From: a virus | Taxonomy: Duplodnaviria > Caudoviricetes | Direction: 5' to 3' (one strand) | DNA length: 43,986 nucleotides | Virus record (IMG/VR): IMGVR_UViG_3300036833_000061 | Coordinates: 1 to 43,986 of that record | Shown here: positions 1,815-43,950 of the stretch, piece by piece | How positions within the stretch are numbered: position 1 is the stretch's first letter | Layout: the number at the start of each line of letters is the position of its first letter | Translations under genes and position numbers: made by a program | The notes under the pieces: generated by a model | Databases searched by the model: none | What the model was told of the DNA's origin: nothing | The model's input: only the letters and a program-made list of their open reading frames with translations

Positions 1815-2255
1815 TTATGTCTCCCGGATCGTAATCCCGTACTGAGCCTTGACCATCTTCTTTTTCAGCCGGTACATCTGGGTTTGGTAGCCCTTCACGT
1901 CCTCGACCACCCGGATGGTTCGAGGGCCGCCATTCCCATTCGCCGTTTCGAAATAGGCAAAGTCGGCGAAGTAACTGCAAACTTTTTGCGCTTGTCCGGT
2001 TTCACATGACCTGATGTGGATTTCGTATTCGGGCTCCAGCTCCAGCCCCCGGATGAGTCCCTGCTTTTCCAGCAGTTTCAATTCAGCGTATCGCTTTGCC
2101 TGTTTCATGCTGGGAAATATGATTCCGTCCACCGTCCGCTCCCGCGTGTCGGGCGAGACGTTGTACTTGCTGGCGCCCGCGCGCCGCCTCTTGTTGAAAG
2201 CCTTATACTGCCCGACAGTCAACCTGACCGGATCGTCCGGATAAGGTATCCTCAT
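1815..2255 (-). CDS. DUF1064-family PD-(D/E)XK endonuclease
   Basis: SKYN...VDGIIF.S..QAKRY...YFADFAY...VEDVKG...YRLKKK; GGAGG SD and ATGA overlap fix the start at 2255. Confidence 0.85.
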   Translation of the reverse strand: MRIPYPDDPVRLTVGQYKAFNKRRRAGASKYNVSPDTRERTVDGIIFPSMKQAKRYAELKLLEKQGLIRGLELEPEYEIHIRSCETGQAQKVCSYFADFAYFETANGNGGPRTIRVVEDVKGYQTQMYRLKKKMVKAQYGITIRET

Positions 2256-2467
2256 GATGCCTCCTTCTTCTTCAACCGTGTACACACCAATCTGACCCAA
2301 TGCGCGGTTGGGCCGCTTTGCGGGGGGCCGTTGGCCTCCCAGCCGATTATGGTGGTGCGGCCTACCCCGAACCGTTTGGCGAACTGAGCCTGTGTTTCGC
2401 CTAGTTGTGTGCGCAGTTCAAGCAGATCATAGCCCGTAATCACGAAATCATCTATCATCAGCGGCAT
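2252..2467 (-). CDS. XRE/Cro-family helix-turn-helix regulator
   Basis: LRTQLGETQAQFAKRFGVGRTTIIGWE motif; divergent from the recombination operon. Confidence 0.85.
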   Translation of the reverse strand: MPLMIDDFVITGYDLLELRTQLGETQAQFAKRFGVGRTTIIGWEANGPPQSGPTAHWVRLVCTRLKKKEAS

Positions 2468-2507: not shown

Positions 2508-2537
2508 TTTGTGGAGGCCAGTCAAACGGAGGACAAC

Positions 2538-3491
2538 ATGACGCTTATTACCCGCGATATCGCCGCCAAGGTTCTGGCCGTTATCGACAAGGGATTGGTA
2601 AAAGGTGTCGGCAAGCCGGTGCCGGGCCAGATGTGTGTTGAGGCCGCCGTGTGCTACGCACTCGGCCTACCGCATGGTGACGAACCGGACTGCGTGGCGC
2701 GCTCGCTCCGAGCACTGAAAATCAGGCTCAACGATTCCAACTGGTCTTCGGACGAGGCCCGCGCCCGGGGATTGCGCCGTCTCGCAGTGGCCCAACTCGG
2801 TAGTGCCGGCTTTCTGGATGACCTCAAATTTTCCAAGAGATGCGCTGAATTGGCGATCCGAACTTGCGTGCCGCAGGCACTTTGTGCGGCAGCTTCAATC
2901 CAGAAAGACCCTAACCACAAAGCCGCTCTGATTGCGTCAGCCAATGAATGCGAGGCCAAAGGCACGCGAAAGGCGGCGCTTGAGGCGAAGATGGTAGCCT
3001 CCGCCGCCGCCGCCGCCGCCTACGCCGCCGCCGCCGCCTACGCCGACGCCGCCTCCGACGCCTCCGACGCCGCCGCCTACGCCGCCGACGCCTCCGACGC
3101 CGCCTCCGACGCCTACGCCGCCGCCGCCTCCGACGCCGCCGCCGCCGCCTCCGACGCCTACGCCGCCGCCGCCTCCGACGCCGCCGACGCCGCCTCCGAC
3201 GCCTACGCCGCCGCCTCCGACGCCGCCGACGCCGCCGACGCCGCCGCCTACGCCGCCGACGTCTCCGCCGCCGCCTCCGACGCCTACGCCGCCGCCGCCG
3301 CCGCCTCCGACGCCTACGCCGCCGCCGCCGCCTCCGACGCCGCCGCCTACGCCGCCGACGCCTCCGACGCCGCCAAAAAATCCGCTCGCGATAAAGTGCT
3401 CGCTGACTTTGCCGAAGGCGTCGTTCAAATTCTGATCAAGATGAAGGCGCCAGGCTGCCGGTGGCTAAAGCTTACGAAGGTCGCAGCATGA
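2538..3491 (+). CDS. Hypothetical protein with Cys/His-containing N-terminal domain and long Ala/Asp/Ser/Tyr repeat
   Basis: GGAGG SD before ATG 2538; MCVEAAV...HGDEPDCV...IRLND followed by a 126-codon low-complexity tract. Confidence 0.85.
   Translation: MTLITRDIAAKVLAVIDKGLVKGVGKPVPGQMCVEAAVCYALGLPHGDEPDCVARSLRALKIRLNDSNWSSDEARARGLRRLAVAQLGSAGFLDDLKFSKRCAELAIRTCVPQALCAAASIQKDPNHKAALIASANECEAKGTRKAALEAKMVASAAAAAAYAAAAAYADAASDASDAAAYAADASDAASDAYAAAASDAAAAASDAYAAAASDAADAASDAYAAASDAADAADAAAYAADVSAAASDAYAAAAAASDAYAAAAASDAAAYAADASDAAKKSARDKVLADFAEGVVQILIKMKAPGCRWLKLTKVAA
2997..3374 (+). repeat. GCC-rich coding minisatellite
   Basis: 378 nt built almost only from GCC, GAC, TCC and TAC codons. 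Confidence 0.95.
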
Positions 3492-8722: not shown

Positions 8723-8882
8723 CTCCGCTTTCTCCCGTAACCTTGTGTCTCACAGCCAGCAGCTTGGCACCTGCCTCGATCGCCTTAAGTCGGTCGGAGG
8801 GCGAAATCTCCGGGTTTTTGAGCACCTTGCGAATCTCGCGCTCCAGCGTATCCAAAAACGTCGATTCCTTGGGCTTGGTCAT
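8700..8882 (-). CDS. Small helical hypothetical protein, 60 aa
   Basis: ATGA overlap with the upstream gene; packs into the operon. Confidence 0.65.
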   Translation of the reverse strand: MTKPKESTFLDTLEREIRKVLKNPEISPSDRLKAIEAGAKLLAVRHKVTGESGDGSFFRK

Positions 8883-10399
8883 TCTAGCCCATCTTGCCCC
8901 GGATTAGACAAAACGTCCATAGCGGATCGGGCGGCAGCCGACGGTATAATAGCTTGCCGATTTGGTATCTGCGGTGCAATGCGCGCTGCCACCGGAGCGC
9001 CCAAAGGGCTTTCTGCCTTAATCATATCCCCCAACTCGCGAATTTCTCGCTGCGTAAGATAGACGCCAGAACGCCGAGCTAATTCGGTAACGGCTGCAAA
9101 AACGGTCGCCGCTCCCAAACCACCTTGCAAGTCTGCCATGACAGTACCGGCCGCAGATACCGGGCCTGATGGGGCATATTTCCCGGCATAGCGAGCCGCA
9201 TTGCGCAGTTTTGTCCCAGAAACGATTTGCTGCATTTTAGCTCGAGTCTCTGGCGAGAATCCGCGCACCTTCTTTGGATTGTCGAGAATCCCCCGGATAT
9301 TCTGCCGCATTGCGTTTTCGGTATTGGAGCCTGAACCAGACACAGATGCCCGATTTTCCCCTACCTGCTGCGCCCTCTCGACAGCTTCCAGCTTCTTGTG
9401 CGCCCTCCAGCCCGAGCGTGCGCGCTGCCACTGTTGCGTGGTGAACGCAGGGTCGCCTTTAATGACTTGAGATGGATGGAGATTATCTATCCACCTTTCT
9501 ATGGATCCCCGAACGATACTGGCGGCTTGTCCATCCGCCGTCCAAGGAGGGACATCCCCCAACGCTTGATGGACATCAAGAATGTGGGCAATCTGGTTGG
9601 TGGAATTTGATCTATTTGCCTCTAGTTGTTTAAGGCCCTTAAAGGTTCGAGGAGCCCCCCCTTCTCCTACCTCTACATGAAGAGCGCGATCCAGATCGGT
9701 GCGAGCCCCGTTCACTAAGTTATCCATGGCGGCAGGCCGCACTTGCAGCCGCGCGTTAGAAATGGCTTCATATCCGGCCTGCGAATCGGCCTTGATGGCT
9801 TGATCGGTCGGAAGTTGTTTGGATAGGCGAGAAGCTTGACGCTCCGCCCCGGCTATTCCGGTGCCTGCTCCTCCCACGAGACCCCCGAGAAACCTACCGG
9901 CGCCAGGGTGATCAAGAGATTCGCCCAGTTCTCCTCCAGCTTCAGCCCCGAGGCCGCCTCCCAACGTAGTGGCAGCCTTGATGAGCTTGCCGCCGGGACC
10001 GATCACCGAGGACGGCAGGAACTCACCGACCGACTGTCCGTAACGCCCAGCGGTGGTTTTTGGCTCTTGGAACTTGCCAAAGACTTTCTCTACTGGTTTG
10101 GTAAGCTCTTCCGAAGTTGCTAGAGCGTAAGAATTATCTTTCGGCGGTTCTTGACCAGTCAGGTAATCAATCCCCTTGTTGAGGCCTGATGCGATGTCTC
10201 CCGGCAAGCCGGCGAGGCCGATAGTCCCCTTGGCAACGCCGCGCCCGAAAGACGTGGCTACATCGCCCAATGCAGAAGGCTCGTCCGGCTTATAGTTGGA
10301 TTTGGCATAGGCCATTATCTGATCGTCAGTCGCGCCTTCTGGAGCGTTAAAGCTCAAGGTGCTTCCGTCTGGTGCTTTGACGCTGACCTTGCCCATCAA
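8879..10399 (-). CDS. Putative DNA ejection / internal virion protein
   Basis: Gly/Ala-rich hydrophobic segments plus helical core; position matches podophage DNA-transfer proteins. Confidence 0.65.
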   Translation of the reverse strand: MMGKVSVKAPDGSTLSFNAPEGATDDQIMAYAKSNYKPDEPSALGDVATSFGRGVAKGTIGLAGLPGDIASGLNKGIDYLTGQEPPKDNSYALATSEELTKPVEKVFGKFQEPKTTAGRYGQSVGEFLPSSVIGPGGKLIKAATTLGGGLGAEAGGELGESLDHPGAGRFLGGLVGGAGTGIAGAERQASRLSKQLPTDQAIKADSQAGYEAISNARLQVRPAAMDNLVNGARTDLDRALHVEVGEGGAPRTFKGLKQLEANRSNSTNQIAHILDVHQALGDVPPWTADGQAASIVRGSIERWIDNLHPSQVIKGDPAFTTQQWQRARSGWRAHKKLEAVERAQQVGENRASVSGSGSNTENAMRQNIRGILDNPKKVRGFSPETRAKMQQIVSGTKLRNAARYAGKYAPSGPVSAAGTVMADLQGGLGAATVFAAVTELARRSGVYLTQREIRELGDMIKAESPLGAPVAARIAPQIPNRQAIIPSAAARSAMDVLSNPGQDGLE

Positions 10400-13163: not shown

Positions 13164-15353
13164 TTACCCTAGTGCCGCCAAGGCATCCGGCGAGAGTCCT
13201 GGCTGCGGCGATCCTAACACGGTTCCACCGGGAACGTACGCGCCGCTGTTGGGGTCAAAGACTGGTCCCAATGTGGCCCCGGATGGGGAGGGTAGGCCTG
13301 GCGGCCCCGAGGGCGGCTCTTCCCCCCCGAGCACGGTAGTAGCCGGGTTGGGGTTGTAGCCCCCAGCGTTAACTGGCGGGAATACGAATGGGGGCGGTCC
13401 CGCTGGTCCTGGTCCTGATGGCCCGGCTGGTCCTGGTCCTTGCGGCCCTGATGGTGACGAAGGGATCGCTTGGGTGATCTGAGCGGCCAGCGTTTCCGGG
13501 GTCAGGGGAGGCACTGGCGTAGTGCTGCTGCCTGGTGCCGGCGCCCCGAGTCCCGATGTGTCGGAAGGCGGGTTGGAGAGCGTGTCGAGCGCGTTGGAAC
13601 TGATCGACGGCGTTGTGGTCGATGAGGGGGTGTTTCCCGGAGCCGTGGGCGCACTCGGACTGCTTATGGGAGAAATGCCGGTGTCCGATCCGGCCGGAGC
13701 TGGAGCCGGCCCCGGGGCACCGAGAGGCCCCACATCTACCGGAGTTGTCGGCGCACTGATGTCCTGCGGGCCGGTCAATTGTGGCGTGGTGTCCAGCGGA
13801 GCGGCCGGCAGCATGTCCGACTTGCCAGAATTGAGCGGTGGCGTCGTGGTCGTATTGGAAGGCGCCGCTACGGGAGTCCCGGTCGGATTGCCAAAAGCAT
13901 CCGTGAGGGCAGGGTTTTGCGGAGCGGACAGATTCCCGGATACCGCCGCCGGAAGCCCACTTAAGTCGGCCGCCGGAGCCGTTCCAAGTTGCGGTCCTAA
14001 TGTTGGCGCCGATCCTGCTATCTGCGCCGCCGGAGGGTTTGAATTGTTCAAAAAACCGCCGCTGAGTGCCTGCGGGTTGGTGTTTAGAGACCCTGGAGCC
14101 AAAAGCGAAGGATCGGTTGTGGTCCCTCCGGTCAGACCGAAAATCTGGGAATTGGGGCTGGATGAGAGGCTTGGGAGTATCGCCCCGGGCTCTAGTGCTC
14201 CCGGAATAGTCCCGCCAATCTGAGGCTGTTGCAGGGACGTGTCGGCGCCCGGCAGTGTGTTCATGATTTCTTGGAAAGTTAGGCCGCCCTGGGGGTCAGC
14301 GACGGGAGCCCCTGTGGGAACTCCCTGCGGATTCCCCGGAGTATACGAAGTAGTCGGTACTCCAATAGCCGGGCTCAAGTCGGCGCCGAGCGCCGCTCCT
14401 ATGGGGGAAATACCAGCGAGAATGTCAGAGATTGAGGTCAAGCCACCAGATAAGCCGGCAGCGCGCGCGGCGGCGGCCGGAGATTGTGGCGCAATCTGGC
14501 CGAAATCTCCCGGGATACCGCTTGGCGTGTTGGGGTCCGGGGCGGTCGGGTTTCCAGGCCCCTGCGCTGGCCCCTGCGAGCCCGGAAGCCCAAACCCGGG
14601 CTGACCTGGGTCGAACGTCCTGCCTGGATCGAATAGCGGCCCCTGAGTCGGGTCTACTGCGTTAGGGCCTTGGCCGACGCCGATCGCTTGATTGAGTTGG
14701 TCTTGGGTTAGGCTGCCATCGCCAACGAACCCAAATTGGCCTTGAGGGCCAGAAACCGTCCCGAATTGGCCAACTGGTGCAGCATCCAGCGCACTCACTG
14801 CATCCGGGGATATACCCTGCTCGTTGGCAGTTGCATCTGGGCTCTGATTACCACCAGTCGGGTCGGTAGGCTGGCTAGTGCCAGCAGGGCCTTGCTCGTC
14901 CTGCCCCGTCCTGGGGCCGCCGCCATCAAAGCCGCCCTCGCCTCCTCTGAATGCAGAGATGTTATCTTGCTGGTCCTGCCCCGTAGTACCGTCGCCGTCT
15001 CCGGCGCCTAAGTCGCCACCTCCACCATAGCCGCCCTGTGTCCCGTCTCCTGTATCCCCGGCGCTAGAAGTTCCGCCTTGGCCGGTATCATTACCGCCGC
15101 CCCCACCATCGCCCCCAACGCCACCGCCTCCACCTCCTTGGCTGGTGCCGTCGCCGCCGCCACCTCCCCCGTCACCCTTTCCGCCGCTGCTGGGGCCAGC
15201 GCCACCATCCCCGCTCCCGCCATCGCTCCCGCCATCGTCATCACCCCCGCCGTCATCTCCTCCCCCTCCATCGCCACCGCCCCCATCGCCGTCATCATCA
15301 GCGGACATCCATAGCCAAGACGGTTCCCAGCCCCATTCCAGAATATTACGCAT
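13164..15353 (-). CDS. Gly/Pro/Asp-rich, probably disordered protein, 729 aa (putative internal virion protein)
   Basis: Uninterrupted ORF with GGAACTGACCAATG start context, coupled to the GNAT gene; fills the operon exactly. Confidence 0.75.
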   Translation of the reverse strand: MRNILEWGWEPSWLWMSADDDGDGGGGDGGGGDDGGGDDDGGSDGGSGDGGAGPSSGGKGDGGGGGGDGTSQGGGGGGVGGDGGGGGNDTGQGGTSSAGDTGDGTQGGYGGGGDLGAGDGDGTTGQDQQDNISAFRGGEGGFDGGGPRTGQDEQGPAGTSQPTDPTGGNQSPDATANEQGISPDAVSALDAAPVGQFGTVSGPQGQFGFVGDGSLTQDQLNQAIGVGQGPNAVDPTQGPLFDPGRTFDPGQPGFGLPGSQGPAQGPGNPTAPDPNTPSGIPGDFGQIAPQSPAAAARAAGLSGGLTSISDILAGISPIGAALGADLSPAIGVPTTSYTPGNPQGVPTGAPVADPQGGLTFQEIMNTLPGADTSLQQPQIGGTIPGALEPGAILPSLSSSPNSQIFGLTGGTTTDPSLLAPGSLNTNPQALSGGFLNNSNPPAAQIAGSAPTLGPQLGTAPAADLSGLPAAVSGNLSAPQNPALTDAFGNPTGTPVAAPSNTTTTPPLNSGKSDMLPAAPLDTTPQLTGPQDISAPTTPVDVGPLGAPGPAPAPAGSDTGISPISSPSAPTAPGNTPSSTTTPSISSNALDTLSNPPSDTSGLGAPAPGSSTTPVPPLTPETLAAQITQAIPSSPSGPQGPGPAGPSGPGPAGPPPFVFPPVNAGGYNPNPATTVLGGEEPPSGPPGLPSPSGATLGPVFDPNSGAYVPGGTVLGSPQPGLSPDALAALG

Positions 15354-15870
15354 TGGTCAGTTCCTTCACGTAGAGCAAATCCGTGAGAACATATCCCATC
15401 CCCTCAAAAATGTACCCGTGATTATGCGCCGCCTTGGACCGGAGCGTCACAAACACAGCGCCGCGCTCGATCGCTATCTTCTCCGCAATCTGCAACATAG
15501 CTTTGCCGGCCCCAAGATTGCGGTAGGCGGGATGCAGATAGTGCAGATCGTCTGTGGCCACCTTTACTTGCTTGTAGTGTAGATGCGGCTTCACGACCAC
15601 GATCATGTAGCCGACTGTTTGGATGCCGTCCTTGGCTCGAATGAGCACCATCTCGTCCTTCTTGAGCATCCGATCGTATTCCCGCCAATCAGGGTCTAGC
15701 TTCAGGGTGCTCTTGAAGCTGGCCACCTCCTCGTAGTGGGCCTTGAGAAGCGGCTTGGGGAGTTCGCGGGCGGACCCGCCAATGTCGAAGATCAGATTAT
15801 GACGAGCACTGATCCCTGGAATCGGCTTCACCATGTAACGGGCTTCAACTTCTGCTGCTGTCGGCATCAT
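15346..15870 (-). CDS. GNAT-family N-acetyltransferase
   Basis: YLHPAYRNLGAGKAML acetyl-CoA motif A; C-terminal FEGMGY. Confidence 0.88.
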   Translation of the reverse strand: MMPTAAEVEARYMVKPIPGISARHNLIFDIGGSARELPKPLLKAHYEEVASFKSTLKLDPDWREYDRMLKKDEMVLIRAKDGIQTVGYMIVVVKPHLHYKQVKVATDDLHYLHPAYRNLGAGKAMLQIAEKIAIERGAVFVTLRSKAAHNHGYIFEGMGYVLTDLLYVKELTNA

Positions 15871-16253: not shown

Positions 16254-18038
16254 CTATGCGCTTGGCCTAGATGCAAGAACCTTTGCGTCTTGGTACTCCA
16301 TCACCACCTGATTGATGACAAATCCAGAACCTCCGGCTCCTGTACCAGCGAAGCTTCCAGTTATGGTCACCCCTAGGAAAACTCCCGTGGCCGCCGCTTG
16401 GCTACGCTGGTAGACAAATCCAGTGGTAAACCAATCCACCACTTGGCCTAGGTTATTCTTCCAAATCACAACCTGATTAGAGTTGTTTAGCCAGACCATC
16501 TTGTTACCTGACGGAAACGGGAAGCTGATGCTGCCGTTCTCTGAATCCGTCGTTAAAAGCACGGTGGAGAACGTATTAGTGAAATACGCTATGGCGCAGG
16601 CTGTGGCGCGCTTGCCCATGTGGGGCTTGCTGTGCGCCGTGAGCGAGGTCTGAAGTATGATCGGCACTGGGTTGGTGCTTTGGAAAATCTGGGTTACATC
16701 ATTGCCGGATGAAACGAATGTCTCTACGATGCCGTTGATCGTGAGCGAGCATATGGTTGCCACCATATTGCCCTGATTTGCTACGAACCATCGGTTCTTG
16801 TAAAAGCAGAGAATGAGAGAGCGGGTTCCCTTCACCGGGTCTTTGTATCTGAGCAACAAAAGGAAGGTGTGCAATGCCGTATGCAAGTCCTGAATCGCAG
16901 CTTGAAGAGGAGTGGAAAAATCGGCAAGCGCGAATATCCCATCCATCGGATCGGAAACCTTCTCCACCGAGGCTCCAAGTATGGCGTAGACCCCGACCTT
17001 ATTCGCAAACAGGATTAATCTATTATAGCTGGCTATCGCCCGAGGAAATGTCGTACCTTGATCGGATGATAAGGTGACGATGTTGAAGATCGTGCTGCTG
17101 CTTTGAACTGTGACGGTGCCGATCTGCTTGATTGAGGCGTCACCAAAGATGTAAAGGAAGTTATTCAAAGAGCGCAGAGCGGTGATTGAGTGGACCAGAT
17201 CGGCGTCAGCTATGGTGGTACTGCCTGAAGCGTTGGCTGGGTTCGAGTCGTCAAATCCCTTGGTGCCTGTCCACTGGAGAGTGCGCGCTGCCCCGAGCCA
17301 GACGCGGCCAACGAAGACGGCCAACGTCGTGGGGGTGACGGCAAAGAACGGCCATACAATCGCGGTGCCTGTAGCGCCGGTTCCGGCCCCTACAGCCGTT
17401 ATCGTCAGCGTCAGGGTATCTGCGGCCTTATAGCCGCTGCCGGGAGCCGTCAGGTTCAATTTTGTGACCACACCAGCCACAACGGTCGCAGTCGCCGTCG
17501 CGCCCGAACCACTCCCCCCCGTAATCGCCACCGTCGCTCCGGACGTATACCCCGAACCTCCAGCAGTAACGATAAGATTGGGCGACACTCCGCCCTGTTT
17601 CACGAATGCCGTTCCGTCCCATGTGGAGTATCCTGCTGTTGCATCAGCGATCAGTATGCGCTGAGATTGCCATACCGTCATATCTGGGGTGAGAGAGAAC
17701 GTGCTGGCCGGAGCGATAAGAACTTGGGCGCCGGTTACTGCGTTGACCTGATAGGCCGATCCCGATTGACAGAAATTGATGATGTAATCGACGCCCCCAT
17801 AGTTGGCGGTGAACTGAGAAGCAATAACCTCTCCGGTTATGGTAGTGAGAGGAGGCGTCACGGGACCGTTCATGGCGGCTAATTGATTGGGCGCCACGAT
17901 GATCAGGTTTTCGCACCACGCGAGCTTGTTAGGCTCTAGAGCCTGCCGGGCCGATTGGGTGTCCATGGTTTGGAACCCAGCAAAGCCGATGTAGTCTTTG
18001 GTCGCAAGCTGCTGGGCAGAGACTTCGCCGGGCATCAC
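16254..18038 (-). CDS. Tail stabilisation / nozzle protein (P22 gp10 or T7 gp12-like)
   Basis: 594 aa, beta-propeller-like (VFVGRVWL, NNFLYIFG); downstream of the adaptor. Confidence 0.7.
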   Translation of the reverse strand: MMPGEVSAQQLATKDYIGFAGFQTMDTQSARQALEPNKLAWCENLIIVAPNQLAAMNGPVTPPLTTITGEVIASQFTANYGGVDYIINFCQSGSAYQVNAVTGAQVLIAPASTFSLTPDMTVWQSQRILIADATAGYSTWDGTAFVKQGGVSPNLIVTAGGSGYTSGATVAITGGSGSGATATATVVAGVVTKLNLTAPGSGYKAADTLTLTITAVGAGTGATGTAIVWPFFAVTPTTLAVFVGRVWLGAARTLQWTGTKGFDDSNPANASGSTTIADADLVHSITALRSLNNFLYIFGDASIKQIGTVTVQSSSTIFNIVTLSSDQGTTFPRAIASYNRLILFANKVGVYAILGASVEKVSDPMDGIFALADFSTPLQAAIQDLHTALHTFLLLLRYKDPVKGTRSLILCFYKNRWFVANQGNMVATICSLTINGIVETFVSSGNDVTQIFQSTNPVPIILQTSLTAHSKPHMGKRATACAIAYFTNTFSTVLLTTDSENGSISFPFPSGNKMVWLNNSNQVVIWKNNLGQVVDWFTTGFVYQRSQAAATGVFLGVTITGSFAGTGAGGSGFVINQVVMEYQDAKVLASRPSA

Positions 18039-36430: not shown

Positions 36431-36651
36431 TTAATGCCTGTGATGTTGATGTTGATGCCAGCGACCGCATGAAGAAGCGGGATGACGACGTAGAACAGGA
36501 TGATGGCCACCACCACGATGATGATGATGACATCTATCGCCTGCGCAATGATCGGTTCCATCGGAATGATCGCCACGATCCTCCGAACGGCCCAGAAGAC
36601 AAAGCCTGCGATCAACAAGGCAATGATGACTTGGACCAATAGGTTTATCAT
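36427..36651 (-). CDS. Two-TM small membrane protein (holin candidate)
   Basis: Very hydrophobic 74 aa; GGAGG SD; ATGA overlaps; directly upstream of the endolysin. Confidence 0.75.
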   Translation of the reverse strand: MINLLVQVIIALLIAGFVFWAVRRIVAIIPMEPIIAQAIDVIIIIVVVAIILFYVVIPLLHAVAGININITGIK

Positions 36652-37667
36652 TTGGTCTCCTCCCAAAACTTCTTGAGGTATGTCCATTTGTCGAGCGAAC
36701 CCTGGTCGGCAAGGTTGGCGCACTCGATGAGTTGTAGTTGGCGGAAGAACTCCGGAGTTAGCTGCGTCTTCTGATCATATCTCAGATCGACCGTGATCAG
36801 ATCAGGGCCGTGCTGCCGATCCAGAGTCCGGGGGCGGTCCAGCACCGAGAATGTGTAGGCCAGCGCCTCTGCTTCCTTGCCGAACTCGGTGGCCACCATG
36901 GCCCGGTTATCCGGACTTGGACATAAAATCTGTTGGTGAAAAGCGTTTGTCCCATACACGGAGTGTAGCCCACCTGCCAGGGCCACCGAGGAGGAGTGTG
37001 ATGGTGCCATCTCCAGAAGGTGGTATGTCCTCATCAAGTGGTCGTGGAGGGTTCCCTTGCCGTGCTTGTGCTTCAATGCCCCATGCTCCACGAGGAAGCG
37101 GGACAGCTTCTCGAATGTCTCCGAACGGCGGGAGCGCGTCTTGAACATCAGGGTGGTTCTCAGGATCGTGCATTTTCGTGACACCGCTCTGGCTGCATGC
37201 AGCATGTTGGAAGGAATAATCAGCGCGCGGTTGGGGCGCGGCAGGGTTGCTTCAAGATCATTGCCATTGAGAATCACAGTCTCTCCGGCCCAATCAGGAG
37301 CCCATTCCTCGCACATATAGAGGATGATGGTGTGGGTATCAGGATCTTCGCTGTCGCGATGGAAATATCCATCGGTGCCGTAGGTGTAGCCGTTGGCGTA
37401 GCAACGAACGACCGGATTATTCCCCAAGGCGGCGGCGGGGCCGGCCATATTCCAAGCGCCGACTAACTCCAACGGCAACATCCATATCAGATCAGCAAGA
37501 TTGTCCCGGTTGTCGTGTACCGGCTTCCAACTCCAATGCCCGTGCGGGTCAGTCTTTGAATTGCTCTTGGAGCCGTACTCCATGGGTTGCTCCTGAATGT
37601 ATTTCAGGAGCTTCATATAAGAGTCTGCCGGCAGGAATTGGTCAATTTCTCGAATATCATTGTTCAT
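36648..37667 (-). CDS. 2OG-Fe(II) oxygenase fused to a DUF6817-like (HD-like) domain
   Basis: HRD...W.PDWAGET...LHAARAV...R.TLMFK, then H...TLHDHL..T...AGGLHSVYGT...FGKEAEAL. Confidence 0.8.
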   Translation of the reverse strand: MNNDIREIDQFLPADSYMKLLKYIQEQPMEYGSKSNSKTDPHGHWSWKPVHDNRDNLADLIWMLPLELVGAWNMAGPAAALGNNPVVRCYANGYTYGTDGYFHRDSEDPDTHTIILYMCEEWAPDWAGETVILNGNDLEATLPRPNRALIIPSNMLHAARAVSRKCTILRTTLMFKTRSRRSETFEKLSRFLVEHGALKHKHGKGTLHDHLMRTYHLLEMAPSHSSSVALAGGLHSVYGTNAFHQQILCPSPDNRAMVATEFGKEAEALAYTFSVLDRPRTLDRQHGPDLITVDLRYDQKTQLTPEFFRQLQLIECANLADQGSLDKWTYLKKFWEETK

Positions 37668-37938
37668 GGGGTGGCCATGTACCGCACCATCTGCAATAGG
37701 CGGCACTCGGAGGTTTTGGATCATCACCTTGCAGCAACGGGACCGACGTGCGTTGGTGAAGACCCCCGCTGTGATCCAGCACTGCCACATTGACCAGGCG
37801 AAGCCCCCATACATAGACCACGGTGGAGGTCATGGGGGCTTCAAGCCCAGAATCGTATGATTTGTAGACCATCATGTCCTGATGGTCGCGGCCTACCGGA
37901 TAGTACCAGACTTTGCTCCCGATCGTCGGCTTGATCAT
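37657..37938 (-). CDS. Conserved-looking phage hypothetical protein (frame open to 38109)
   Basis: MIKPTIG.KVWY...VNVAV.D..G....TSV.L.Q....YC.W; GGAG SD before 37938. Confidence 0.7.
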   Translation of the reverse strand: MIKPTIGSKVWYYPVGRDHQDMMVYKSYDSGLEAPMTSTVVYVWGLRLVNVAVLDHSGGLHQRTSVPLLQGDDPKPPSAAYCRWCGTWPPHEQ

Positions 37939-38119
37939 CTGGGGCTCCATGAAGAGGTATGGGCCGGATGTGCCCCACAAAACTAGGTGCATGTAGTTCT
38001 GTGCATCCGGCCCCACCCACACAAGCGAGGGGGTGGGGGGCCTGAGGTCGCCTGTGTGAACCAAACACGATACTAAATAAGTGCCGGCGTCAGCCACCTG
38101 CGGGTCCATGACGTTCTGA

Positions 38120-38213
38120 GATGCCTCCCGCCCGATGTGGCCTTCTCCCCGAGCCGCCGGCTACCCAGGAGGACAACATGGCATCGCAGTATTCTAGGCA
38201 CGTCTTCAGTCGC
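38120..38213 (-). ncRNA. Candidate structured leader / antisense RNA carrying CAUGUUGUCCUCC
   Basis: Downstream of a candidate promoter; closed by GATGCC/GGCATC; 38168-38180 is identical to 2528-2540; ends are approximate. Confidence 0.4.
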
Positions 38214-38220
38214 GCAACCT

Positions 38221-38256
38221 ACATAGCAGGTCTGTGGGGCGTGTCAAGTCCTGACG
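38221..38256 (-). promoter_or_regulatory. Leftward promoter with overlapping TGTCA-N5-TGAC operator
   Basis: CTTGAC-16 nt-CTATGT on the minus strand; 38241-38255 is the exact reverse complement of 2475-2489. Confidence 0.6.
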
Positions 38257-38266
38257 TGTTGGTATG

Positions 38267-38701
38267 TCATGCGCCGACCTTCGGGATCAAGCAAATCGGC
38301 TCGCCACTGGATGGAATGACGAACAGGATTACATTGTCGATCGGATTGCCTTGTGTGGTCTGTAGCTTCCTGCGCGGCACCGCAAAGACCGTGCCGTCAG
38401 GGAAAATGCCCTTCCCATTCAGGATGCGTACCTTGAAATCCCCCGTAACCGCGTCCTCCCCGGCCATCTCGGAGTCGAAGGCTTCACTCTCCCCGCAGCA
38501 GCTATACTCGGGGTAGTCTGGCCGCATGAGTTGCTGGAACCACTTGCGGACCTCCGGGGGCTGCCGTGACCACTGGCCATCGTCACGGGCCACCGCCGCG
38601 CGCGCCGCCAGAACCATCACAATGATCGTGCACAGCCACGATATGACCGCCAGCCCAATCAACTGCCAGATCGTCCACCGTGGATATTCCCTCCTGGCCA
38701 T
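38267..38701 (-). CDS. Exported Cys-containing hypothetical protein
   Basis: N-terminal TM/signal; WF..L...SCCG...GNP...ICLIP; AGGGGG SD. Confidence 0.8.
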   Translation of the reverse strand: MARREYPRWTIWQLIGLAVISWLCTIIVMVLAARAAVARDDGQWSRQPPEVRKWFQQLMRPDYPEYSCCGESEAFDSEMAGEDAVTGDFKVRILNGKGIFPDGTVFAVPRRKLQTTQGNPIDNVILFVIPSSGEPICLIPKVGA

Positions 38702-38715
38702 ATGGTTCCCCCTAC

Positions 38716-38781
38716 AAAAAGGAGCGCGAGCTTATCCACCTGCCTCGAACGGAGAAGAGACCGATGCACCCACTCGCGCCC
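38716..38781 (-). ncRNA. Candidate small RNA: 10-bp closing stem, anti-SD loop and U5 tail
   Basis: GGGCGCGAGU/GCUCGCGCUC stem; inner stem UGCAUCG/CGAGGCA; loop UCUCUUCUCC; ends in UUUUU. Confidence 0.45.
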
Positions 38782-39160
38782 AAGTTATACGGTGGCGGGC
38801 TTCTGAACCATCCCCCGGGTGGTCGTTAGGCCAATCCTTGTTAGCCTTTTAGCGGGGTGTGTTGTTCCTTGATCGTGGCTGGCCGTGTCACAGCCCTTTG
38901 GACTCAATCAAGGCACATCCCAACTCCCAGGTTTGCGAGGTATCCCGCAGCTCCGTCTTCTCCCCTCCTTAGGGGCACCGTATTGGCAGGCAATCCGCCG
39001 GGGCATCGAACCCCGCACACCGGCTCTCCGGTTCCCACCGTAGACCTTATCGGTAACCGTCGTTACCGACGACTTCATACCGTGGTCGTTGGCACGTCCA
39101 ACAAAATGTTCCCAGCATTGCGGATAACCCAGCCACACACCTCTCACCAAAACCCAACAA

Positions 39161-39175
39161 TGTCAAGTGCTGACA
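39161..39175. promoter_or_regulatory. Operator-like TGTCAagtgcTGACA
   Basis: Same TGTCA-N5-TGACA motif as at 2474, 2493 and 38242; intergenic. Confidence 0.55.
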
Positions 39176-39335
39176 GGAACACCAGGGACACCTTTTTCCT
39201 TTGGGGCGGGGGATGGTTGGGGCGGCCGCCTTCTCCTCTCTCGGCCCCATCGGCCCCGCGCACGCTCGCGCGCGCTGGGGTAGACGAGGGGTCGGGGCGG
39301 TTCACATGATGACCAGATACCAGGGACAGAGGGGC

Positions 39336-39348: not shown

Positions 39349-39927
39349 TATCGGTGTTCCGTGATACGGGTACGCGTGTCGGGAAGCACTTGGTGTCATC
39401 TCTGGCGTCATCTCCTAGGTGCCACAAGCGCTGCTGTAAGCAAGGAGTCTTCCGAGGGAGTACTTGCGGTTTCGTTCTGGCATCTCTCTCCACCCTACAC
39501 TTAAGCTTTGAGCCCGCGCGCCTTCTTTAGCGCGGGTAGTGAGTACCGTCGTTCTCTGTAGCCTCGTGCTCGGTGGCGCCGAGATATCGGTGCCGCCTGG
39601 CAGTGGCTTCCTGTAGGGCGCGTCGGGCTGTCAGTGGGGGGAGGTACCGCGCGCGAGGCTATCTGACTCGGTATAGGTCAGTCAAGATGACATATAATCC
39701 GGTAATTGGTTGATAGTACTGCAACAATAGAGATAGGACCGGATCGGACCCATTTGTAATGAAACATTAATGTAGTGTGCTCGTCTTGTACCGTATTTGT
39801 AATGTCCTGGTAATGACATTTTACGTGAGACGTGTATTCTATGGGACAAGAGAACGGACCTGGGAATTCCTCACGGTGGCACCTATGACAGGGTGCGGTA
39901 ACGGGCTGAAACATCTCTATCGTATAA

Positions 39928-40272: not shown

Positions 40273-40291
40273 TGCCCCTAGGAAAACCACC

Positions 40292-43298: not shown

Positions 43299-43480
43299 GG
43301 AGTTTGCCCGGAATCAAATGCCTTGATTGCGGGCGGTTTATTTCGTTTCTAGACATAGCGAACGGCAAGGCAATCCACCGCTTGTTGACGCCTCAAACGT
43401 CAGAGACCAGCGAAGAATGGGAATCGGTTTGTGAGGATTGCTGGACTCGGGGAAGGTTGAAATCGGAGAAAGTGTCATGA
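43280..43480 (+). CDS. Small zinc-finger protein
   Basis: CLDC...CEDC; GGAGG SD; ATGA overlap with the protease. Confidence 0.7.
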   Translation: MARQRMRSLPGIKCLDCGRFISFLDIANGKAIHRLLTPQTSETSEEWESVCEDCWTRGRLKSEKVS

Positions 43481-43950
43481 GACGCATGATTATAGCAGCG
43501 CTGTTGGTCACCACATGCGCCGGCCTGCTGGAGCGGGGCGCAAGCTCCGCCCCAGCTCCACAGTGGACGGCGCAAGCCGTCCGCACCCATGTCCCGCTGC
43601 GATGGGAGAACGGCGCCTATCTGGTCCCGGTCACCATCAATAACATGACCAGAGAGTTCATGCTCGACTCTGGCTCCGCCGATGTCAGTATCTCGATAGA
43701 GATGTTTCATAACTTCGCTCAATTGCCCGCGATCGAAACCAGTGGGCAGTATCTCACGTCGAGCGGCGAGGTTTACAGCAAGGGCCGGTTTCATGCCAGC
43801 GTGACGGTCGGGGGGATCACTTTCGACCGAGTAGCTATGTCGGTAGCTCCTGCCGGTGCCCCCATGCTGCTAGGTATGGCGTACCTGGGAAGACTCAAGT
43901 CGTGGTCTATCGACAACACCATGCTGCAATTAACTATGGAAAGGAGATAG
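43477..43950 (+). CDS. Secreted retropepsin-like (clan AA) aspartic protease
   Basis: Signal peptide; FMLDSGS catalytic motif and LLGMAYL. Confidence 0.88.
   Translation: MRRMIIAALLVTTCAGLLERGASSAPAPQWTAQAVRTHVPLRWENGAYLVPVTINNMTREFMLDSGSADVSISIEMFHNFAQLPAIETSGQYLTSSGEVYSKGRFHASVTVGGITFDRVAMSVAPAGAPMLLGMAYLGRLKSWSIDNTMLQLTMERR

Follow-up and report, generated by a model that had tools for sequence, protein, structure and literature searches.

The stretch of DNA analysed here (the window), a complete phage genome of 43,986 nt with a 127-nt terminal repeat, encodes a predicted RNA element that, judged from its sequence and from those of its homologs, is a covarying pseudoknot motif absent from Rfam and carried by a small clade of uncultured soil phages. 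That the structure is real is highly probable. For its function we tentatively favour, at somewhat less than an even chance, a multi-target anti-ribosome-binding-site (anti-RBS) RNA, whose promoter would carry the operator that also controls the early operon.

The structural, terminase and lysis genes of this genome lie on the minus strand from ~38,700 to 6,100; the plus strand carries RecE-like and RecT genes, an AAA ATPase and small genes, and a 71-aa HTH gene and DUF1064 are transcribed leftward from 2467. Neither an integrase nor an antirepressor was found among the 82 ORFs scanned. The host would be alphaproteobacterial, to go only by weak relatives (Caulobacter phage Cr30, and a Bradyrhizobium phage capsid at 28%). 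Elsewhere in the genome were observed a 2OG-Fe(II) oxygenase-like domain fused to DUF6817 (36648-37667, minus; common to G018, G025 and G045), an aspartyl-protease-like gene among the early genes (43438-43950, plus), a GNAT acetyltransferase amid the structural genes (15346-15870, minus) and a second protein with major head protein annotation (8879-10399, minus).

A predicted three-helix pseudoknot and its relatives

The element, its helices and its surroundings are as follows.

38083-38185, minus strand: conserved predicted pseudoknot RNA, with the order a5′-L1-c5′-b5′-a3′-b3′-c3′ and homologs in lineages A/A2, B/B2 and C
38185-38180 with 38125-38120, minus strand: helix a, which crosses helices b and c
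38142-38135 with 38099-38092, minus strand: helix b, with both sides changed in four of eight pairs
38161-38155 with 38089-38083, minus strand: helix c, invariant in the window, A and B
38162-38179, minus strand: pyrimidine tract of loop L1, containing 12 of the 13 anti-RBS bases and folding alone at only −1.4 kcal/mol
37945-38060, minus strand: double hairpin downstream of the element (z −4.09, 0 of 200 shuffles), with none seen in the relatives' flanks
37657-37938, minus strand: next gene downstream, of a small phage protein family whose homologs start at the same Met
38178-38516, plus strand: ORF of 112 codons, judged to be a shadow of the minus-strand gene at 38267-38701

The interval marked in the earlier note had truncated the element, which extends to 38083 and spans ~105-130 bases across its copies. 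In the relatives the order is a5′, loop L1, c5′, b5′, a3′, a variable hairpin, b3′ and c3′; the window copy is without the variable hairpin, and short insertions adjoin helix a.

Homologs were first seen by a DNA search of 24 related records, which had been found via the capsid protein: an 18-nt identity beside the 13-mer of loop L1 appeared in G025, and later a copy in G016. A pattern scan of IMG/VR returned nine copies among ten matches (the tenth, L259, was dropped as chance at 9.1 bits), and 10 of 83 viral loci contain the element, one of them as a new variant, which brought the variants to A, A2, B and B2. A covariance model trained on these four, with the window left out, recovered the window copy at E 5.2e-5 (next match, 15.6 bits); in 60 records it also picked out G018 (E 1.1e-6), which represents a fourth lineage, C. 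Trained on four variants, the model has limited reach to distant homologs; when 81 loci from the viral and bacterial sets were rescanned with it, the best value was E 0.34. No element was found in 120 bacterial-genome stretches (62 of 64 parts scanned), and none matched in two bacterial genomes. G050 (E 0.034) and L405 were inspected as candidates and discarded, and of the pattern scans one gave a single match judged to be chance and another gave none. Searches with the proteins encoded at 38267-38701 and 36648-37667 returned no close relatives, a metagenome scan returned only a distant cellular homolog without flank, and neither 15 loci with gene 2538 nor 80 with the downstream gene's family were syntenic with the window.

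Compensatory change is found in all three helices. Helix a has three of six columns compensatory across the window, A, A2 and B, and is formed in C by 8 bp of different sequence; helix b, under the first segmentation, has three of eight columns compensatory, and its window copy includes a G-U pair and a mismatch; in C, four of the seven pairs of helix c are altered on both sides. The sequence of lineage C differs, yet helices a, b and c are fully paired there. Across six variants, 12 of 25 nested pairs are changed on both sides, a count equalled in 0 of 500 shuffles, with the alignment fitted to the model and the sequences related. A sequence-free descriptor (helix lengths, spacings and one AA), derived from the element copies themselves, matched 11 places (13 rows) in 1.30 Mb, each of them an element copy. 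When the topology was sought in shuffled sequences, 0 of 300 passed for the window and 9-18 of 300 for A, A2 and C, where the helix finder had missed the real helix a. Plain minimum-free-energy folding overlooks the pseudoknot, and the z values of the region (0.42 and −1.08) are unremarkable. A 14-nt direct repeat (5941/38082) overlaps the 3′ strand of helix c.

Neither the element nor its homologs matched Rfam at E up to 5, known ribozyme and riboswitch families included, nor did the window at gathering score. HDV-like and other self-cleaving ribozymes likewise gave no Rfam match, and the helix order of the element is unlike that of HDV. The motif was not found described in the literature, and three supplement tables of a catalogue of 10,006 candidate phage RNAs (PMC10690425) hold no match; the motif may be listed in its alignment and position files.

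The element is presumably transcribed from the minus strand: its G-U pairs are consistent with a minus-strand (late-sense) reading, and the flanking genes are late-sense in all lineages. The next real start after the leader is 37938, where homologs begin, so 38215-37940 is non-coding; the earlier note's antisense RNA stretch stood in this respect, its anti-RBS bases lying in a non-coding, predicted-structured minus-strand RNA. In A and A2 the preceding gene's stop codon marks the start of the element, which in B begins eight bases past the stop; in C it lies inside the structural operon. The neighbours on both sides are unlike between A and A2, and likewise between B and B2, and the element thus behaves as a module. 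No intrinsic terminator was called immediately after it.

Operators, predicted promoters and the position of the element

The sites and genes concerned in transcriptional control are the following.

2252-2467, minus strand: small Xre/Cro-like HTH gene (Pfam HTH_3, E 1.5e-5), encoding a putative operator-binding repressor
2474-2507: operators in tandem separating the HTH gene from the recombination operon, with the same layout in G016, G040 and G044
38242-38256: copy of the operator that overlaps the −35 box of a predicted leftward promoter
38220-38247, minus strand: predicted leftward promoter, with −35 TTGACA at 38247-38242, a 16-nt spacer and a −10-like TATGTA at 38225-38220
39161-39175: fourth operator copy, at the −35 of a second predicted leftward promoter; also in a relative contig

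The pattern GTCA-N5-TGAC occurs at four sites in the window (2475, 2494, 38243 and 39162) against 0.43 expected, a count reached in 0 of 100 shuffles. Its consensus is the palindrome TGTCA-N5-TGACA, and each copy includes a TTGAC −35 box; with a matrix built from the four, their own scores are 18.5-23.7 and that of the next site is 10.9. The earlier note had proposed, from an exact 15-mer (2475-2489 is the reverse complement of 38241-38255, as it stated), that the leftward promoter shares its −35/operator with that of the recombination operon. This was supported in that one repressor family would cover both promoters and that operator and HTH gene are kept in relatives, but the site belongs to a four-copy family and is no private twin. 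The leftward promoter was identified by eye, the sigma-70 scanner making no call there, and transcription would start near 38213.

In relatives the HTH homologs are 48-54% identical and flanked by matching palindromes, with one more palindrome ahead of DUF1064. The HTH protein would be the operator-binding repressor of all four promoters; a separate HTH search yielded no added function. Operator regulons of the Cro/CI type belong to lambdoid phages, which the window resembles in that its small HTH gene and its recombination operon diverge and palindromic operators overlie −35 boxes, and from which it differs in having a single 71-aa HTH and, among 82 ORFs, no integrase. With palindromic sites flanking the HTH gene and kept together with it in relatives, the operator part reads as an ordinary Cro-like phage regulon with presumed binding.

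In A, A2 and B, operators precede the operon that contains the element, the nearest being ahead of DUF1064, at 1,939 nt (G016), 1,442 nt (G044) and 1,916 nt (G045) from the element. In the window, an operator-linked promoter that resembles the lineage B copy ahead of DUF1064 (the one at 38242) is 61 nt from the 13-mer; as DUF1064 is located elsewhere in the window, this spacing is likely derived. The adjacency of promoter and antisense stretch, on which the earlier note had built, is thus not general, the relatives' element lying inside an operon 1.4-1.9 kb from the nearest operator.

Several further features of this region were observed. The stretch 38700-39135 (minus), behind the fourth operator, is a second strongly folded non-coding one (z −3.88) with no match in Rfam; its first 155 nt form a predicted multi-arm domain (z −3.9) that was negative with ARAGORN, and an arm beside its closing stem presumably resembles a tRNA T-arm. 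Relative contigs retain 38788-38819, 38931-38964 and 39137-39175, the intervening stretches of 172 and 121 nt being replaced by 9-24 nt; none of these contigs extends over 38120-38256. A motif containing TTTTGGTG and a GC-rich block (window 39137-39160 and 39200-39275) are conserved in G016, G018, G025, G027, G044 and G045 and, in several relatives, precede the late-leading operon; the leader after the motif folds well in G016 and G044 (z about −4), and the region is possibly a late promoter or packaging signal. Between leftward and rightward operons, the AT-rich intergenic stretch 39660-39850 has a degenerate operator-like site at ~39680 and short palindromes at ~39803.

Loop L1 and the ribosome-binding sites

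Two features define the proposed pairing in the window.

38168-38180, minus strand: 13-mer complementary to the SD and start codon of gene 2538, an exact match
2528-3491, plus strand: SD and gene 2538 (317 aa; conserved N-terminal domain plus Ala-rich repeats), the predicted target

The second match of the earlier note is likewise exact: 2528-2540 is identical to 38168-38180 on the plus strand, so the minus-strand RNA is complementary to it, the 13-mer being a direct repeat on the plus strand. The note's argument that the opposite orientations of the two matches speak against duplication has little weight with a palindromic site; a simple duplication of the switch region was ruled out all the same by the differing order and spacing of operator and RBS. 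Exact 13-mer repeats are abundant in the genome (26 direct and 18 inverted), and perfect 13-nt complements to 61 hand-picked start regions number two genome-wide against about 2.9 expected from a scaled rate: 38168 with gene 2538, and 16370-16382 (inside a coding sequence) with 40275-40287 at the start of gene 40292, which served as a chance control. For a 13-nt match within the 271-nt leader to gene 2538 specifically, the expectation calculated post hoc is ~1e-4, or 2.6e-4, likewise post hoc, when both operator-linked leaders are counted. Gene 2538 is the best of the 61 start regions against this leader, the next best matching 9 nt. On the non-coding strand of structural genes, a 14-nt direct repeat (21028 and 26373, plus) consists of an SD plus ATG, and RBS look-alikes thus recur by chance.

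The predicted duplex of loop and target has −22.1 kcal/mol, with opening costs of 4.8-9.4 for the RNA (6.3 with helices b and c enforced) and 3.3-3.9 for the target, so that pairing appears thermodynamically feasible. The loop was compared with the RBSs of its own genome in each lineage, with p-values that are post hoc. The 13-nt match of the window is reached in 0 of 41 background genomes or pseudo-genomes. In lineage A the best match is 10 nt, and starts matched at at least 9 nt number six in G016 and five in G044 against a background maximum of three; in B the best is an ordinary 8 nt, and in C 10 nt including one G-U. With one G-U allowed, the background equals or beats the own-genome match in 0 of 44 cases for the window, 4 of 44 for A, 44 of 44 for B and 10 of 44 for C. 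The window and A are thus exceptional, C marginal and B null.

The six matched starts in G016 comprise four on the early strand, including RecE, and two on the late strand; three of the early ones look paralogous and hence are not independent. The complement of the A loop, GGAAAGGAC, is present at five of eight AAAGGA-type starts in G016, at 0 of 171 starts in other viral loci and at 1 of 111 in GC-rich ones. GAAAGGAC is absent from the entire window genome. The tract stays anti-SD-like across the lineages, with CCUUUC in A, B and C but CCUCC in the window, both of which are parts of the 16S 3′ end; in every copy its CC could form a small hairpin with the GG that follows. Covariation of the 13-mer with the RBS of its target, a check that the earlier note had proposed, failed to appear: relatives retain only the pyrimidine core of the 13-mer, and gene 2538 is missing in them. 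Nor was covariation found with one orthologous target, the first gene after the switch in A and B pairing over 7 nt with two G-U and ranking 121-202 among candidate starts.

Gene 2538 is the first gene of its operon, preceding the RecE-like and RecT genes, with a long Ala-rich repeat at 2990-3400 (plus). Across 15 viral loci of unrelated contexts, identity in the N-terminal domain is 53-72%. It has neither a Pfam or PHROG family nor a toxin annotation, and in an Atlas search the nearest named cluster, Imm5-like at 0.77, is a lead only and adds no function. None of 23 related records has the gene, not even the two that are 94% complete and contain the element, and the element is absent from seven unrelated phages with gene-2538 homologs. 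Gene and element thus occur apart, and a dedicated pair is not conserved. In G001 (L118-L120), a 19-nt stretch upstream of a gene-2538 homolog has two further copies on the same strand.

Possible functions of the element

Under the favoured reading, the HTH protein would repress two promoters, that of the early recombination operon and that of the operon containing the element. The element, transcribed on the minus strand and folded into its three-helix pseudoknot, would be freed from, or act within, a long late-leading transcript; its exposed pyrimidine loop L1 would then pair in trans with early-gene RBSs, here that of gene 2538, blocking initiation and damping early-gene translation. In the window phage, genes between promoter and element would have been lost or moved, giving the 61-nt spacing, and the loop matches the first early gene over a longer stretch; the loop of lineage A matches a 9-nt RBS common to several early genes, including RecE. 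The role would be that of a general early-translation brake, not of a one-gene antitoxin. In this account the sequence itself shows the four operators with the HTH gene next to them, the conservation and covariation of the element in four lineages, and the complementarity; repression of all four promoters by the HTH protein, transcription on the minus strand, folding as drawn, release from or action within the long transcript, and blocking of initiation are what we infer. A stronger form, in which the element is a reprogrammable anti-Shine-Dalgarno device, a movable module in the late-leading transcript whose loop is retuned per lineage to the early RBS motif of its own phage and shuts early translation down, is rather doubtful.

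Against the anti-RBS reading stand lineage B, which is at background, and lineage C, which is unexceptional. Any anti-SD-like tract will match RBSs, the CC-GG hairpin in every copy offers a purely structural reason for conservation of the tract, and a 12-bp duplex within a closed pseudoknot loop would be topologically strained. Pseudoknots with conserved nucleotides, moreover, signal ligand-binding or catalytic tasks rather than antisense ones, according to passages of PMC5737381. The element may instead be a cis-acting module of the late-leading transcript (a stabiliser, processing site, self-cleaving ribozyme or put-like antiterminator), with a structural pyrimidine loop and the 13-nt match arising by chance over a conserved core of 5-7 nt, a close rival that we hold to be only slightly less likely than the favoured reading. 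The tight three-helix crossing topology, the sharp boundaries with differing neighbours, the constant sense orientation in the operon with a changed position in C, the background-level matches of the B loop, the near-expected number of 13-nt anti-start matches and the lack of a terminator after the element all suit it. It leaves unexplained the 13-nt match of the window and the six matched starts of A; no known ribozyme or riboswitch family in Rfam matches, and put RNA serves early genes by binding RNA polymerase, as set out in part of PMC9378689.

Three narrower readings fare worse. Loop L1 could sequester the SD of the next gene in cis as a translational switch, the SD lying 3-6 nt past its end in lineage A and in B and B2, where 6-7 pairs could form if G-U is counted; this is improbable, as the next SD is about 55 nt off in A2, 115 nt in C and 135 nt in the window, the downstream genes encode unrelated small proteins, and the A loop matches the adjacent RBS less well than distant ones. 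The earlier note had pictured a silencer or antitoxin co-released with gene 2538 and dedicated to it. The perfect match, best of 61 starts, the same-operator promoter 61 nt upstream, and the fact that the extra loop bases and gene 2538 are both specific to the window lineage speak for such a pair, yet the element predates the gene in the clade, the gene is found elsewhere without it and nothing annotates it as a toxin, so that we consider the pair quite improbable. In type I toxin-antitoxin systems the antisense RNA overlaps or adjoins a small hydrophobic toxin gene; the product of gene 2538 has 317 aa, the gene lies far from the element, and the plus-strand ORF is judged a shadow. That ORF bears on a caveat of the earlier note, by which 38168-38180 might be the working RBS and start of a small antisense plus-strand gene at 38178. 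An SD plus ATG is indeed present in the window, B and B2; A, A2 and C are without an ATG or GTG at usable spacing, and the ORFs, of 112, 15 and 11 codons, are mutually unlike. In the window, the ORF has a codon score of −0.05 against +0.08 for the minus-strand gene at 38267-38701, which has homologs, and tblastn returned no match to it in 50,697 phage records or the 23 related records, features of a shadow frame that make this gene highly improbable.

Among known phage RNAs, sar of P22 overlaps its target on the opposite strand, whereas the target in the window is about 8 kb off around the circle, with 13 nt in common. It pairs with mRNA and blocks translation initiation, and the loops of the c4 antisense RNA of phages P1 and P7 pair in trans with RBS regions in a fold-dependent manner (passages of PMC12197685). 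To c4 the element is akin as a phage RNA with proposed loop-RBS pairing in trans; it differs in having no Rfam match or antirepressor target and in being a pseudoknot inside an operon, against the 77-nt immunity RNA of c4, and the c4 model (RF01695) found no match in the window, the element or its homologs. The portion of PMC2864571 considered lists c4 and STAXI and nothing resembling the element. Cuckoo/alpha-r14 sRNAs and the C-rich loops of RNAIII present an anti-SD motif in loops whose stems covary freely (PMC4615179, in part), as the element too presents one; there, however, two to four adjacent plain hairpins each carry CCUCCUCCC, whereas the element has one tract, another motif and crossing helices, and with no Rfam match it does not belong to that family. 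HK022 put RNA, a structured cis element in a phage transcript that binds RNA polymerase (PMC9378689, in part), is the model for a cis-acting role, with the difference that put serves early genes and the element lies in a late-leading operon. In T4, RegB switches off early genes via their SD sequences (PMC3014915, in part); it is a protein nuclease, and the agent here would be an RNA.

Whichever function applies, the fold is small enough for in vitro synthesis and testing. Were it cis-acting, a sharp-ended three-helix pseudoknot would be a candidate for a new class of stabiliser or ribozyme. If it is an anti-RBS device, the phage would time its early-to-late switch by one structured RNA directed against a private RBS motif; and if the retunable form were true, the element would be an RNA counterpart of T4 RegB, governed by the repressor of its own targets.
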